Source of the DNA: Bdellovibrionota bacterium
Lineage (GTDB): Bacteria; Bdellovibrionota_C; UBA2361; JBGSMV01
Direction of reading: 5' to 3'
Assembly (NCBI GenBank): GCA_041739995.1
Contig: JBGSMV010000059.1
Span: 32,001 to 96,000, forward strand
DNA length: 64,000 nt
In this document: one piece after another, positions 36,001-42,000 of the stretch
How the letters are laid out: every line of letters starts with the position of its first letter
Position numbering within the stretch: the first letter of the stretch is position 1
Made by a program: the position numbers

Positions 36001-39000
36001 GCGACGAAGAACGTAAGGTCATCAGTCTTGCGGCCTCAATATCGGTGAGCATGTCTGCGAGCATGAACTGAATGGCTTGAAAATTGGCGATCGGCTGCCC
36101 GAACTGGGAACGCTCCTTGGCGTATGCTCGAGCATGAGCATACGCAGCACGTGCTATTCCCACGGCAATAATGGCCGTAAGGGGGCGACTAAGGTCCAAG
36201 GTCTTCATAGCGATGTTAAAGCCACCGCCTTCTGCCCCAATGCGATTATCGGCAGGGATTTCCACATTGTCGAAGGTGATTCGCACTGTGTTCGAGCAGC
36301 GTTGCCCCATTTTGTTTTCATGGTTTCCACGAGAAATTCCAGGGGCGTCGCCGGGTACTACGAAGCACGTAATGCCCTTGTGGCGCTGCTTTGAGTCTAT
36401 GGTGGCAAAGACCGTGAACTGCGCAGCGTCGCCTCCATTAGTAATCCACTGCTTTGTTCCGTTGATAATATATTTGTCACCTTTTTTGGTGGCTGAGGTA
36501 GTAATTCCGCCGGCGTCGCTCCCGGCTCCCGGTTCACTCAAACAGAAAGACGCTAGCTTGGGGGAAGCAGTAATGCTTGGGATAAATCTTTTCTTCTGCT
36601 CCTCTGAGCCACCGACCAGAATAGGCGTAAGGGCTAAATCGTTGGCGACAAAAGACGTGGTGATTCCCGCGCAGCCTGCCGCAAGTTCTTCGATGACTAA
36701 GCAAGCATCATGATTGGAAAGTCCTGTGCCACCGAGTTCGGACGGTTGCAGAAGATTACAAAGCCCCAGTGAGTGCGCCTTTTCAAGAACGGCATGCGGG
36801 AAGTGCGCTGCCTCGTCCCATGCTCCTGAGTGTGGTGTAATCTCATCACGAGCGAAGCCCGCAGCAACGTCGCGTAGCGCCAATTGTTCTTCGGATAGTT
36901 GGAAATTTGAATTAGCGCTCGATGCCATGGTGTACCCCTACTCCCAGAGTTTACTCCCATGGGGATATCGTCACCATCAGCAGAATCCTACACTCAAAAG
37001 AGAAGCAGCTTCGAATGCACCCATGGCGGCTAGGTGCACGCATTCGAGCGTCACTGGTCCTGCTGTATTGGATGTGAAGCTGCAACTACGTTCTGGAATT
37101 GAAAACACGCAAGCCTCGAACGGCTCGCAGTTCAAAAGTTACCGCTATTACTTTACTCAATTCTATGAACCAAGACGCGAGAACTAGCCAATCTTGCTTC
37201 TGTACGAACTCTCTGACGTGGACGTAGAACCCACGCCAGGCATCGTGGAACCATCAAGGCCCGCAGTAGCAGGCGGCTTCGCACCGTCGCGAACTACTTC
37301 GCGTTCGACGGAGTTCGAGAGCCCAGCAGTTGCGCTCGCAATGGCACCCGCTTTCAGAGATCCGAGTGCGGTAGAAATTTGAGAAGCAGCTTCCTCTAGC
37401 GCAGGCATAATTGCTTCAACCTTAGCGCGGTACTGAGGCACTAGGACTTCGACAGCACCCACGACTTCGTTGCCGTAGCCCTTAACGATCTTGGAAAGAG
37501 AAAGCACGTCGGCTTCAATTCCACCGCGATCAATAATTGAGCCACTATTTCGAAGTTCGTTAAGCTGACTTCGAATCGCAGCATCGTGCGCTGTGTTGCC
37601 GGCAAGCACTTCACCAACCACTGCATCGGGGAATTGAGCAAGAAGTAAGCGACCTGCTGCGTTTTGCTTAGCGGGAAATGATACCGCTGCGCGTGGTGCC
37701 ACCTTCACTGACCGACGTGACTCAAAAGTCACTGGGTACTGCACGAGCCCGCTTTGAAGAACGGCAAGACTTACTGTCTCCCCGAGCTGCTCCGCGAGAC
37801 CTTTAAGAATAGGCGCTGAACGAGATACCAGCTTGCTTTGGAGAATGTAGGACTGTCCGAGCTGGAGAGCTTTGACGCCAAGGCGATAGTCTTCGCTGTC
37901 CTTGTTCTGCTCAACATAACCGCGCAACTCCAGAGTAGCGAGCAATCTGAACACGTTGTTCTTGTGGAGCTTAAGGCGCTTTGAAAGCTCAGTAACCCCA
38001 ACCTCTCCGGCGGCCTTGGAGAGTTCTTCAAGAACATCCAAAGCATGAGAGACCGACTGAATCATGTAGTTGGCCTTCTCGCGCTTAACCATACTTACTC
38101 CTTTTTGACGTCCTCGGCGGTCTCATTTATTTAGCGATTCCAGTACTTTGGGCTAAGACCGTGTATAGCTGGGTTCATAACAGGCAGATAGTGAAAAAGC
38201 AACCCGTATTTTATTCCCAAATTCAATATTCTCGAGAGGTTGCCACCTAACGATCTAAGCTCTCGATCTTCCGCCCGATGCCGAAGTTGTAAACTAGACC
38301 TACTTCCAAGCGTCGCAACTGGGCCATTGCCTTATCTAACTTGGAGCCAACTACTAGGACCAACAATTAGGAATAAAGACCCACTGGCAAGTCCGTAGCG
38401 CTCCCCGTCACCTCTTGAGCAAGCGTAGCGCCTATACGACCCACGCTGCGCGTTACCTCCTCGGTGAAGATAGTAACTACACGACGCAGCGAAGGGTGAT
38501 TAACGGCAACCATGCGAGCCGCGCATGCGGCGAGAGCAGCACACGGCGAGATTGAAATGTGTGGGTACTTTTCGAAGAGCTCTCTCTGGGTGGCGATAGA
38601 GACATCATCGGGAATATCTATGGGCTCCTCGGTCACCAATGAACGATCGAATACCGGTGGCTCAAAAGTGCTTCCAACCCCTTCGACTTTCCAAGGATGA
38701 GGGGTCTTTCCTGGACGCGCGAACACTGAACCTTCTGGCTGCGCGAGAAAGGTTCTAATCGTTGGGTTTCTTGCCTTCAGCGCACGGGTAACGCCGCAAA
38801 AAGTTGCACCAGAACCTGCAACAATGACCGCAGCATCAATCTTTCCGCCCATGTCCTCCCACATCTCTGGGCCGGTCTCCATCTCGTGGGTCAAAACGTT
38901 TAGCGGGGAAGAAAACTGCTGAGTGTATATAGTGTTTGGGAATGTCTCGGCCATCACTCGTGCCGCTTCGATAGAGCCACGCATTACCTCAGATTTCGGG

Positions 39001-42000
39001 GTCAGCACCACGCTGACTCCAAAGTGGCGCATCAAGTTACGCTTCCCGACAGATCGATCTTCAGGGATACACATGATTACTCGGTAGCCGCGTTCGGCGG
39101 CGAGCACGCCCATAGCGAGTCCAAAATTACCGGAGGTGGCGTCAACGATCGTGGAAACGCCTCGTACCAGTAGTCCGCGCCGCTCTGCATCATTCAAGAG
39201 CGAGCGAGCCACCCTGTCCTTAACGCTGCCAGTAGGATTGAAAAACTCAAGCTTCGCATAAACTGAAGGATGAAACTTCTCCAAATGAACCATCGGTGTT
39301 GACCCGACTCGCGAGCTAAACACCAGATTCGCACGCTCAGGAGTTACTGAAATTTTACTTGGGGCAAATTGCTCTGAATCAATATTGCCCATCTCTCCCA
39401 CCCACATTTTTATTTACCTCTTCAATGCTAATGATGTCTCGCATGGTGCGCCTCTCGCTTGAGTCTCTACTCAAACGTGAGCTCTTCCGCTTCATTGGTC
39501 TCTAGGCTCTGAATCTCTGAGCGCTCACCTTGAAAAGTCACGATGTGTAAAATTCCAGACTGGCCCTTTTCGCCTCCTTGGTTGAAAGGAACAATGCGAT
39601 ACACATAGCGTTCACCGGGAGAAACGGTGCTGTCCAGATAGGTGAATTTCATAAGGGAGGAATTTGGCTCTACTCGCCTTGTCGGCTTACCTTCGGCTCG
39701 AGCGATATCTCGCCGATTGTTGAGCTCAACAAGGTACTGATCTTCGAGGGTTGCAATCTGATCATACTCGACATCGGAGTCAAGCAAATCAGATTCGCGC
39801 GTCAGATGTTTACGCTCAATTAAATAGCCTTCGATGGTCTTGAGCTCGTCGCCTCTTTGATCGACTCGAGGAGATTCCCAGGCGAACTGCACTCCACTGA
39901 CTGAGCCCACCACGGAAGTCTCGCGAACTCGAGCCGGGGCAAAGCTTTCGGGCGGCAGAGGTGGCGCATACTTTCCGCATCCCGACAGCGACATGGCAGC
40001 AATGCCCACTAATAAAAGCGTGATCGAACGAAGTTTAACTGTACTTTGAAAGGTGAAGATTCTCGACATAACCGGTTCCTAAGACAATAAATCGAAGCAA
40101 CGTCTCGCGCGGCACAGGTCCACAAAGATTGAAGCCTGCACAACCGTACCTCGAGGAATAGTACATAGCGAGGGAGATATAAATGCTTCTATCCTGCGAC
40201 CATCTGCTAGTTAGCCCGATCGCTTTGGGATTGCTATACTGGGCGTCAGGAGTGTCTCCGTTCACGGGGTCAAATTTACTGGTGGTGTTAGGTAGTTATT
40301 GGGCTAAAATTTACTTGAGTGGTGGCGATTCTGCGGTCGTACCATGCCTGATCGGGAACGGCGGCATTTTGTGAACGGATAGTAATTTCACCCCGGATTT
40401 GCTGACGCGAATCCACCCCTGAGGGGTTGGATTTTCACCCTCGATTTGCTCTGCAAATCGACCCCTTAGGCGTAACGCGGACGGTTTACGCCTGGAGTAG
40501 ACAGTTCGGCTGGGAGCCAGAAAAGAGGCGATACCTATTATGACTGAGGACGGAGCAGCACAGGACCATCCAGCAGAGGAGCCCGGCTCGGCCCCGTGCC
40601 GTATCTTTCATCTCGGAGTTCCCTCGTTTCTCGCGCACTCACTAGTAGATGCTGAGTCAAAGCTCGGTCTTTCCAGCGAACTACTTGGCAATCTTAACCC
40701 GCCATTTCTTCCGGTGTTTCCCGAGCCACTGCTCAAAGGGTTAGAGCACCCAAGGAGCTCCATCCTCGTGGTGCACGGTCTATCTTCATTTTCGCCTTGG
40801 TCTGCGACAGGTTATGAGCAGGTTGGGGAATTGTTCGGGGCACTGCGCGAGCTGGGGACTCGGATAGTTTTATGGGTGCAGCCCAGCGACTTTTTGAGTT
40901 TTCGCGGACGCCCAGACGACCACGCAGAGTTTGCCGCTCAGATCCAGGCCTGCTCCGATGCTGTGGTTTCCGCACCTAGCCTTCTTAGAATCAGCGGCGC
41001 TACTAGTGCGAGCACCACAGAAAAGAGCTTACAAACCGCCATTCCTTTTGCACTGTCTCCTCAAGTGTTGAAAGCTTCCGAAGCGAAGGAGTACCAACGA
41101 GACACTTCATATCGATTTAGGGTGCTGGTGGTGCCCTTCCAGAGCTCGCCGGAGGATATTGCCTCGCTTAGGGACGCGCTAGCTTCCCTGCGTTCAGCCG
41201 AGTTGGTGGTGCGCTCCCCAGAAGATTTTCTAACCTTTGACTCTCTCGTCGAGGAAATTCGGGCTTCAGATGCAGTGGTAGATCTGGCTCACCCAGACGC
41301 CTATGGCCCGATTGGCGCCCTCGCCTTGAGTCTGGCGCGGCCGGTATTCTCAGGGAGCAGCGCCGGGTTCAAAGAGGCCTGGCCCGCTATGGAGCTTTGC
41401 CCGGTCATTCACTGTTCCGGCGCTACTGCTGCTAAAAAACTGCAGTCCTGCTTCCTTGAGCCGCGCACCTTGCGTGATTTTGGTCGGAGAGGACTCGCCT
41501 TCGCTCAGCAACATCATGACGCAAGTCGAGTGGCGCAGCTTACGCAGAGGCTCTACCAGCAGTTGATAAGCTAGAGTTACCGTAGATTATGGATTCGCCG
41601 TCTGGACCAGGCGTGCAGGAATCAACCGTCCATAAATGTTCTAAGACGCTTGCTCCTACTAGGATGTCGGAGTTTTCGAAGAGCTTTAGCTTCAATCTGT
41701 CTAATACGCTCACGAGTCACGTCGAAGTTCTGACCTACTTCCTCTAGGGTGTGATCGCTCTTCTCGCCGATCCCAAAACGCATGCGCAGCACCTTCTCTT
41801 CTCGAGGGGTGAGAGTCGCAAGAACCTTTCGAGTTTGCTCTTGCAGGTTCATGTTAACCACTGCAGTCGCAGGAGAAACGACGCGTTTGTCTTCGATAAA
41901 ATCACCAAGATGTGAATCTTCCTCTTCTCCGATTGGGGTTTCGAGGGAGATAGGCTCTTTGGCAATCTTTAAGACCTTGCGAACCTTCTCTAGCGGAATC

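Follow-up and report, generated by a model that had tools for sequence, protein, structure and literature searches.

The dapA slot and its neighbours

The window analysed here is a stretch of 64,000 nucleotides from a Bdellovibrionota bacterium (genome G000, 91.26% complete in 81 contigs with no N in the sequence), and it was compared with the sister genome G001, in which the dapA locus lies on contig C108. The features concerned, numbered along the window, are the following.

37184..38092, minus strand: IclR-type regulator gene, the conserved downstream neighbour, 75.6% identical to its G001 ortholog
38173..38213, no strand assigned: 41-nt intergenic element with 92.7% identity between the two genomes
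38367..39407, minus strand: CysK-family (PALP fold) PLP enzyme gene, 346 aa, filling the slot held by dapA in G001
39467..40069, minus strand: predicted lipoprotein gene, 200 aa, with a signal peptide ending in LSGC, the conserved upstream neighbour
28670..28778, no strand assigned: dapC deletion scar, with flanking orthologs about 110 bp apart in G000

Eleven ORF pairs with 34–76% identity, together with one antisense shadow pair, occur in the same order in G000 and on G001:C108. Between the orthologs of the IclR regulator and the 200-aa protein, G001 carries an ORF of 301 aa, which encodes a true DapA (TIGR00674, 292 against a cut-off of 206), and the PALP gene of G000 has the same strand and the same upstream neighbour. 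Slot, strand and flanking genes are thus shared between the sisters, as in a displacement in situ. The initial annotation had placed the PALP gene in the dapA slot of the sister species, and this is borne out by the 346-aa ORF, its two neighbours, the syntenic pairs and Logan contigs from four runs of one study, which bridge both gene junctions without differences (X1 record 5 covers 38223–39693 and X3 record 19 covers 37945–38401). An RBS-like GAAGAGG lies 5' of the ATG of the PALP gene. The lipoprotein gene is separated by 59 bp from the PALP gene in G000 and by 26 bp from dapA in G001. The 41-nt element overlaps a promoter-like site upstream of the IclR gene and delimits the exchanged segment on the left.

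The 200-aa lipoprotein has no match to a Pfam or NCBIfam family and is restricted to the genus, with only six other homologs in a large protein collection. Since it is limited to these seven proteins, there is no outgroup for the slot. The DapA of G001 is 39% identical to that of the family member G002 and 52% identical to that of G018, so that its nearest relative is not the DapA of its own family. Several conserved genes without an assigned function flank the slot, and a few uncultured relatives have the PALP gene adjoining the same lipoprotein gene.

The CysK-family enzyme

The 346-aa protein matches the PALP profile PF00291 with 185 bits and resembles CysK and CysM, yet it lies under all NCBIfam cut-offs, including those of the equivalogs TIGR01139 (226.1 against 350.95) and TIGR01136 (cysKM; 229.9 against 344.15). 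It has the fold type II PLP fold with the Schiff-base lysine, the motif GSVKDR being retained and K63 invariant. The AF2 model (pLDDT 86) adopts the OASS fold, and its best Foldseek matches are plant and bacterial OASS and beta-cyanoalanine synthase, with TM scores of 0.77–0.80. The enzyme is small and soluble-looking.

The motifs TSGNT, NPAN, GTGGT, ISSG and PDxxERY of CysK read TSGNF, SPLN, GSGAT, ISPC and TEEVTRS in this protein, with T95F, N167S, G201A, S288P, H239W and Y321S as clade-specific substitutions. The first three motifs and the ISSG serine belong to the substrate and cofactor loops of CysK/OASS. All four members of the clade carry F95, S167, A201 and P288, so that the four altered loops are identical throughout, whereas T, N, G and S occupy these positions in 97–100% of 58 outgroup sequences. 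Three close relatives were found, at 74–76% identity; all other sequences are at most 47% identical, many CysK, CysM and CBS-family members being at about 40%. At 50% identity the clade stands alone as one isolated cluster among 1.84 billion representatives, its stem branch is long (1.85+0.32 substitutions per site), and no ortholog of the gene was found in 123 other genomes of the class. Compared with the OASS/cystathionine beta-synthase family (CysK, CysM, CBS; PF00291), the enzyme shares the fold and GSVKDR and differs in its sub-threshold scores, its changes at near-invariant motifs and its isolation; the gene looks foreign. Its orthologs are better conserved than the adjoining lipoprotein (52–60%), and a separate, ordinary housekeeping CysK is encoded elsewhere in G000.

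Loss of de novo mDAP synthesis

Synthesis of meso-diaminopimelate (mDAP), a building block of the cell wall, is regarded as essential in bacteria with an mDAP-type MurE and is an antibiotic target. A six-frame search of G000 with the DHDPS profile (PF00701) gave no match at E≤1, in agreement with the earlier statement that dapA is nowhere in the genome; the same search found DHDPS in 36 of the 40 other genomes, where the initial count was 37. With tblastn, the DapA of G001 reached a best E of 2.1 across G000 and only noise in the slot itself, and DapA, LysC, DapB and DapF of G001 gave nothing at E≤1e-3. Six-frame searches of G000 likewise yielded no DapB over the cut-off, no DAP epimerase (dapF), no DapL, no dapD-like gene and no LysA (best 93 bits against a cut-off of 298), and no aspartokinase (lysC) was found.

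Two genes of the pathway have been cleanly deleted. The orthologs flanking lysC are 147 bp apart on contig C58, and those flanking dapC, the succinyl-DAP transaminase gene, enclose the scar listed above, where G001 has about 4.5 kb with dapC, a 193-aa ORF and a MenC-like gene of the enolase superfamily. The dapB slot holds an ankyrin gene. The absences of lysC, dapA and dapC accordingly rest on synteny, that of dapB on one-sided synteny, and those of dapF and the dapD-like gene on searches alone.

The sole surviving gene of the pathway is the asd ortholog, an open frame that passes NF011456 over its whole length (281 against a cut-off of 223). Its PNC(S/T)T motif has become PSPAS and its (G/S/A)HA motif GYA, replacing Cys by Pro and His by Tyr; these two are the catalytic residues of Asd, and both are kept in G001 and in the solved structures 2qz9 and 2yv3. 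Judged from its sequence, the G000 asd ortholog is inactivated, its catalytic pair being gone. The initial claim that no gene of the pathway is left has to be amended for the inactivated asd. De novo mDAP synthesis has been lost in G000 through several separate events at several loci; the observation of loss is confirmed, and in a stronger form than first written.

The incompleteness of the genome, its 81 contigs and the reliance on searches for dapF and the dapD-like gene could suggest that the DAP genes lie in the unassembled 9% or so, or that the slot is mis-assembled. Such an artefact is hardly credible given that three slots are empty or refilled within long colinear contigs, that independent Logan contigs span both junctions of the PALP gene, that asd, though retained, lacks its catalytic residues and that the sequence contains no N.

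In this family the mDAP pathway serves only the cell wall, because homoserine dehydrogenase is missing (from all four family genomes tested) and LysA is missing from the genus. HMG-CoA lyase is the one HMGL-like gene present, which leaves neither LeuA nor homocitrate synthase.

MurE and the type of wall

The G000 MurE has the DNPR motif beginning at residue 426 when aligned to the E. coli enzyme (1E8C), as the initial annotation had noted; E. coli MurE has the identical GKRP and GKGHEDYQ, and positions corresponding to the DAP site of 1E8C carry mDAP-type residues. Ligases for meso-A2pm are described as having DNPR as their key motif (PMC3681970). The same motif is kept by MurE of the DAP-less relatives G008 and G022 and of DAP-producing relatives. 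Since all mDAP-type recognition residues are kept, the wall still depends on mDAP or a compound closely resembling it, and G000 must scavenge mDAP or make a sulfur look-alike.

A wall without any mDAP-like residue, in which the LysW cluster would provide L-lysine or L-ornithine for MurE to add, appears very improbable. LysW, LysX, LysZ, LysY/ArgC and a LysJ-like gene are clustered in G000 as in the Thermus-type alpha-aminoadipate lysine pathway, with LysX, LysW and LysZ over their cut-offs, and LysX exceeds its cut-off in only three of 41 genomes (G000, G001 and G030), all of which lack LysA. MurE, however, retains DNPR and the mDAP-site residues of E. coli, as in DAP-producing relatives, and G001 has the same cluster yet keeps its DAP genes. 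No homocitrate synthase was found in G000, so that the earlier doubt as to whether the cluster replaces the DAP route was fair. The LysW pathway supplies lysine and not mDAP, and therefore the gap in the wall is not filled by it.

It is also improbable, if slightly less so, that a non-homologous route, perhaps through the PALP enzyme or other unannotated genes, still makes genuine mDAP. The unchanged MurE, the conserved genes of no known function around the slot and the retained asd-like frame would suit such a route, but with aspartokinase missing and asd without its catalytic pair the usual precursor is unavailable, and no chemistry is known to us by which a beta-replacement enzyme of the CysK type could lead to a C7 carbon chain.

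Two candidate explanations: salvage or a thioether mimic

The best explanation, to which we assign a probability of about one half, is that G000 is an mDAP auxotroph that salvages free mDAP or mDAP-containing wall peptides. These would be taken from neighbours in the hot-spring biofilm, free mDAP entering the wall through MurE and the tripeptide through the LdcA and Mpl-like ligase route common to the whole family. The CysK-like enzyme would then serve sulfur or amino-acid metabolism as a specialised beta-replacement enzyme, and the pathway would not have been lost because this gene entered the dapA slot. Decay at several loci (the six-frame absences, the deletions of lysC and dapC, the refilled dapB slot and the replaced asd residues), a wall ligase whose motifs still align with E. 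coli, and the lack of several amino-acid pathways in the family, which has neither homoserine dehydrogenase nor LeuA, are consistent with salvage. So are G008 (95% complete), which has no dapA, dapB, dapF or lysA, and the DAP-less G022, both with a DNPR MurE and no PALP ortholog. An Mpl-like ligase (300–322 bits) and LdcA are present in all five genomes tested.

Against salvage, G000 has gained nothing specific to it: DAP-producing relatives also have the Mpl-like ligase and LdcA, and in all five genomes tested the Mpl-like ligase scores under the NCBIfam cut-off. Searches for AmpG in G000, G001 and G022 found none, and no uptake transporter was identified in G000. The earlier proposal of dependence on imported DAP or wall fragments is thus plausible without any trait particular to G000 behind it, and the initial interpretation as a whole is partly supported. 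That G001 keeps the whole pathway solely for wall mDAP further suggests that mDAP is not freely available to the genus. Finally, the slot gene belongs to the CysK family, the source of the natural mDAP substitute of Fusobacterium and, to our knowledge, the one enzyme family that makes such a substitute; its orthologs are more similar to each other than are the adjoining lipoproteins, in a genome that already has an ordinary CysK.

These last points lead to a more tentative alternative, left out of account in the initial interpretation, in which beta-replacement by the CysK-like enzyme yields a thioether diamino-dicarboxylic acid, which could be meso-lanthionine, from L-Cys plus D-Cys, or something akin to it such as cystathionine, and the unchanged MurE ligates it into the wall, leaving the mDAP pathway dispensable and free to decay. 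On this possible but doubtful account, the peptidoglycan of G000 and its few PALP-carrying relatives would contain a thioether diamino acid, meso-lanthionine or another, and a newly evolved member of the CysK family, having displaced dapA in its slot, would produce it in a single step. Fusobacterium nucleatum is reported to have no DAP pathway and D,L-lanthionine in its wall, formed directly from L-Cys and D-Cys by the CysK-family lanthionine synthase FN1220/CysK1, whose gene is essential unless lanthionine is supplied (PMC11602996, PMC9600241). Anabaena MurE is described as using both D,L-DAP and D,L-lanthionine, and the E. coli enzyme reportedly does so too (PMC12681378, citing Mengin-Lecreulx 1994).

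G000 resembles the FN1220 system in combining the absence of a DAP pathway with an mDAP-type wall ligase and a CysK-family PLP enzyme beside another CysK, and mDAP-type MurE is reported to accept lanthionine (PMC11602996, PMC9600241, PMC12681378). The thioether account is favoured by the position of the gene exactly in the dapA slot, on the same strand and downstream of the same lipoprotein gene, by the loss of the whole pathway with MurE unchanged, by the PLP lysine kept among four altered loops that are invariant in the clade, by the long stem branch and by the separate housekeeping CysK. Specific kinship with FN1220 was not seen: its structure, 5XEO (identifier from PMC9865163), is absent both from the best 60 of 105 PDB phmmer matches of the PALP protein and from the Foldseek matches listed down to rank 50. 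A lanthionine function would therefore have to be convergent. As further points of difference from the FN1220 system, G000 has no DapF-like gene and the lanthionine activity of its enzyme is putative; the altered loops of the enzyme (T95F, S288P and others) are changes relative to the CysK-family outgroup sequences. Neither a DapF-type epimerase nor a source of D-cysteine was identified in G000, and G008 and G022 live with neither DAP genes nor the PALP enzyme, G022 having no CysK-family match at E≤1e-20. The dapB slot has also been refilled, by an unrelated gene, so the filling of a slot need not carry meaning, and the ancestry of the dapA slot cannot be polarised, the lipoprotein being genus-restricted and the G001 DapA not closest to that of its own family.

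Two other systems bear on the choice. E. coli DAP auxotrophs are reported to be rescued by cystathionine or lanthionine, the mDAP-type wall machinery running on thioether analogues with MurE unchanged (PMC12681378); that is a laboratory construct, whereas G000 is a natural lineage. For salvage the nearest likeness is Tannerella forsythia, a community-dwelling bacterium described as a MurNAc scavenger that has lost an essential wall-precursor pathway (PMC6721243), although the precursor differs and G000 has no identified uptake system.

G000 shows the pathway at every stage of decay, with genes cleanly deleted, slots refilled and asd catalytically dead beside an unchanged wall ligase, and the sister G001, which keeps the pathway only for its wall, offers a direct comparison. 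If salvage is correct, G000 would be a clear example of a bacterium that depends on its hot-spring biofilm community for a wall precursor. If instead the enzyme makes a thioether mimic, lanthionine-type walls would be no oddity of Fusobacterium and the CysK family would have produced such a synthase twice; thioether peptidoglycan would then have arisen naturally a second time and independently, and G000 would show an essential pathway caught in the act of in-situ, non-orthologous displacement.

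The exchanged dapA slot

The initial annotation stated that a gene of the CysK family of PLP enzymes (the PALP gene) occupies the slot in which the sister species (genome G001) carries dapA, and that the diaminopimelate (DAP) pathway is missing from the subject genome (G000); both observations were confirmed and are extended here. The slot and its two neighbours are three genes on the same strand:

37184–38092, reverse strand, IclR-type regulator, downstream of the PALP gene
38367–39407, reverse strand, PALP gene, 346 aa, PF00291 (PALP) with 185 bits
39467–40069, reverse strand, 200-aa ORF, 59 bp upstream of the PALP gene, with a lipoprotein signal peptide ending in LSGC

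Contig C108 of G001 is colinear with this region over 11 ORF pairs of 34–76% identity with the order kept, plus one antisense shadow pair. In G001 a 301-aa ORF lies on the same strand between the IclR and lipoprotein orthologs, 26 bp behind the lipoprotein gene, and is a true DapA, scoring 292 bits with TIGR00674 (cut-off 206). A catabolic DHDPS paralog, considered in view of the IclR neighbour, was ruled out by this score and by 199 bits with the "HpaI-NOT-DapA" exception model, which needs 397. The exchanged segment can be placed at approximately 38214 to 39466, because a 41-nt intergenic element upstream of the IclR gene, overlapping a promoter-like site, is conserved between the two genomes (92.7% identity). 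Traces of dapA were detected neither in the slot nor elsewhere in G000. Both junctions of the PALP gene are covered with zero differences by Logan contigs from four runs, all from one study labelled as hot-spring and biofilm metagenomes, one of which may be the window's own source sample; an assembly artefact is the least probable of the explanations considered. With GC of 0.535 and GC3 of 0.536 (neighbours 0.51–0.57), the PALP gene bears no compositional sign of recent transfer. The lipoprotein gene, for which no known family was found in Pfam or NCBIfam, is the constant gene upstream of the slot, preceding dapA in G001 and the PALP gene in G000, and its family amounts to 7 proteins, all short (184–235 aa), in a collection of 5.8 billion.

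A dispersed intergenic repeat of approximately 170–220 bp is found at 40254–40475, between the lipoprotein gene and a 344-aa unknown gene, and again at 15093–15304. The repeat gave 22 blastn matches on 16 contigs of G000 at 69–92% identity. Between the lipoprotein and 344-aa genes the Logan contigs have joints and numerous loose ends, and this intergenic space is reduced by approximately 225 bp in G001; the repeat resembles a MITE-like element near the exchanged slot. The window also encodes RpoD (41622–43988, 788 aa), in which sigma-70 region 1.1 begins only at residue 176, so that the protein is considerably extended at its N terminus; its ortholog in G001 has 819 aa and is 69% identical.

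Decay of the DAP pathway

G000 is 91.26% complete in 81 contigs, and was examined by six-frame family searches; the residual 9% bears chiefly on dapF and the dapD-like gene. No DHDPS was found at E≤1, whereas the family is present in 36 of the 40 other relatives and in 27 of the 31 genomes (G000 included) with completeness of 90% or more and contamination of 5% or less. No DapB exceeded its cut-off, the sole match (19.8 bits) falling on the asd ortholog, and the same searches returned no DAP epimerase, no DapL (present in only 7 of 41 genomes), no dapD-like match (G001 and the family members G003 and G004 each have one below cut-off) and no LysA (best 93 bits vs 298), which G001 and G003 likewise lack. 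Searching G000 by tblastn with LysC, DapB and DapF of G001 gave nothing at E≤1e-3, and with DapC only aminotransferases of 26% identity.

Synteny with G001 turns three absences into events. G000 has neither the G001 aspartokinase gene (NF005155, 513 bits) nor the 411-aa ORF next to it, and the flanking orthologs lie 147 bp apart on its contig C58. DapC of G001 (TIGR03537, 455.5 bits vs a cut-off of 453.6) is missing together with two neighbours, the flanks being approximately 110 bp apart at window positions 28670–28778. For the divergent dapB of G001 (plant-type model, 152 bits, below cut-off) the synteny is one-sided: the VWA-like gene coming after it has an ortholog in G000, and there the upstream position is taken by an ankyrin-repeat gene. 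The flanks of G001 dapF are without nearby orthologs in G000. The features concerned are:

G000:C60:94551–95360 (L120:8551–9360), ankyrin-repeat protein, 269 aa, at the position of the divergent dapB of G001
G000:C6:29538–30539 (L223:5538–6548), asd ortholog, intact 336-aa frame, passing NF011456 (281 vs 223)

Beside dapC, at G001:C108:27596–28708 (L007:597–1709), is a MenC/o-succinylbenzoate-synthase-like gene of the enolase superfamily (TIGR01928, 323 bits) that is co-deleted in G000; its product may act as an N-succinyl-amino-acid racemase or as a dipeptide epimerase with a link to wall-peptide metabolism.

The asd ortholog, inside a block colinear with G001, is the sole survivor of the pathway in G000. 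Its sequence has PSPAS and GYA at the sites of PNC(S/T)T and (G/S/A)HA in G001 and two solved Asd proteins, Pro and Tyr thus replacing a Cys and a His kept in all three comparators. We take this Cys and His to be the catalytic pair of Asd, and since both are replaced the protein, judged from its sequence, looks dead as Asd, a pseudo-enzyme or relic.

Homoserine dehydrogenase was found in none of the four family genomes tested (G000, G001, G003 and G004) and is present in G008, which belongs to another family. Because G001 is also without LysA, the route LysC-Asd-DapA-DapB-DapD-like-DapC-DapF would in this genus serve only the meso-diaminopimelate (mDAP) of the wall. A LeuA-type synthase was not found in G000, G001 and G004, whose only HMGL-like gene is short (an HMG-CoA lyase in G000); G003 has a single HMGL-like ORF of 615 aa. 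Amino-acid auxotrophy thus appears to be widespread across the biosynthetic repertoire of the family. Both G000 and G001 contain a LysW cluster with LysW, LysX and LysZ over their cut-offs, ArgC/LysY and a LysJ-like transaminase, which in G000 is located as follows:

G000:C64 (L033:4999–10170), LysJ-LysZ-(212-aa ORF, weak EgtC-like match)-LysY-LysX-LysW cluster

Of the 41 genomes, three (G000, G001 and G030) have LysX over cut-off, and a separate ArgB/ArgC pair lies on contig C22 of G000. The doubt voiced earlier about the aminoadipate source of this cluster was fair, no homocitrate synthase being found in G000, where the HMG-CoA lyase is the only HMGL-like gene. The cluster cannot supply mDAP.

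An isolated clade of the CysK family

The best NCBIfam matches of the PALP enzyme are cysteine synthase models, both far under their cut-offs (cysKM, 229.9 vs 344; cysK, 226.1 vs 351), and the CBS, CysM, SbnA and cysteate synthase models score lower still. Assignment as BhcB, considered for the resemblance of the IclR-type regulator to BhcR, was ruled out by 37 bits against 226–230 for CysK. A word-indexed search of 5.8 billion proteins gave three close relatives at 74–76% identity, all others listed being at most 47% identical, and when 1.84 billion 50%-identity representatives were searched exhaustively with HMMER the next best match was no more than 46% identical. There was no ortholog in the 40 relatives (best 41%), in 90 other genomes of the order or in 123 other genomes of the class. 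A first contig scan of genomes with the PALP protein as query returned no relative, a metagenome contig scan with the four-sequence alignment returned, among the matches listed, only ordinary CysK genes of at most 45% identity, and the ESM Atlas matches were to generic "cysteine synthase" clusters only. G000 has an ordinary CysK on C64 that is 32% identical to the PALP enzyme.

A quick maximum-likelihood tree built from 72 sequences (SH-aLRT support only) unites the four clade members with 100% support; their stem measures 1.85+0.32 substitutions per site, and the CysK and CBS genes of the order itself fall elsewhere. The PLP lysine is retained. All four members are altered at positions where 58 outgroup sequences are 97–100% uniform, namely T95F (TSGNT loop), N167S (NPAN), G201A (GTGGT) and S288P (ISSG), and share against this outgroup the further changes H239W, D316E and Y321S as well as a two-residue insertion. 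The AF2 model (pLDDT 86) is confident except at both termini and matches OASS and beta-cyanoalanine synthase structures with TM 0.77–0.80. The PALP enzyme constitutes a new and isolated subfamily within a known family. The longest contigs of its orthologs and of the lipoprotein orthologs are of the same size (14908, 63231 and 14862), which suggests linkage of the two genes in other organisms as well; the enzyme is conserved at 74–76% among orthologs, against 52–60% for its lipoprotein neighbour.

MurE and the supply of the wall diamino acid

The 512-aa MurE of G000 can be aligned over its length with E. coli MurE (1E8C), and the two have GCGGDRD-GKRP, DNPR (from residue 426 in G000) and GKGHEDYQI in common. 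DNPR is named as the key motif of authenticated meso-A2pm ligases in PMC3681970. It is present in 8 of the 8 readable sequences among nine aligned MurE (G000, G001, G003, G004, G006, G008, G022 and G034), the ninth, from the family member G002, being masked at this position; no MurE was found in G030. With MurE unchanged, the wall of G000 would still ask for mDAP or a mimic, and a switch to Lys or Orn, against which DNPR argues, is very unlikely. A novel de novo route to mDAP is improbable.

The single most likely reading, with a probability of about one half, is the import dependence proposed in the initial annotation: mDAP would be taken from outside with no de novo synthesis, G000 scavenging its wall diamino acid as a member of a family of amino-acid scavengers. 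The family's want of homoserine dehydrogenase and LeuA is consistent with this, as are two relatives in which DAP genes are gone, G008 (no dapA, dapB, dapF or lysA) and G022 (no dapA, dapB or lysA, with DapF kept), both of which keep a DNPR MurE without the PALP enzyme; in G022 not a single CysK-family match was obtained at E≤1e-20. DAP synthesis seems to have been lost repeatedly within the order. LdcA and an Mpl-like ligase are present in G000, but both occur equally in DAP producers, and the Mpl-like match is below cut-off in 5 of 5 genomes. Also against this reading, AmpG was searched for in G000 and not found, and G001 retains the whole pathway solely for the mDAP of its wall, which argues that mDAP is hard to obtain.

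A more tentative reading is that the swapped-in PALP enzyme supplies a thioether surrogate of mDAP. According to two reports (PMC11602996, PMC9600241), Fusobacterium nucleatum is devoid of the DAP pathway and employs D,L-lanthionine made by the CysK-family enzyme FN1220/CysK1, which can form it directly from L-Cys and D-Cys and whose gene is essential unless lanthionine is added; a third (PMC12681378) has the mDAP-type MurE of Anabaena accepting both D,L-DAP and D,L-lanthionine, and E. coli MurE is said to do likewise. A derived CysK-family enzyme in the slot of dapA, behind the same upstream gene, with the DAP pathway decayed and MurE unchanged, fits the Fusobacterium pattern; both organisms are without the pathway and both have a CysK-family enzyme. 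Against this, the enzyme has no specific kinship with FN1220, whose structure (5XEO) is absent from the best 60 of 105 PDB sequence matches and from the fold-search results to rank 50, and neither an epimerase nor a D-Cys source was found in G000. Moreover, G008 and G022 live without both DAP genes and PALP enzyme, the dapB slot was also refilled, by an unrelated gene, and the ancestral slot content is polarised neither by the lipoprotein distribution nor by the DapA comparison. Supply of an mDAP mimic by the PALP enzyme is a specific reading that has precedent and is cheap to test, and the decay of the pathway, with an apparently dead asd beside an unchanged MurE, amounts to a clean natural experiment.
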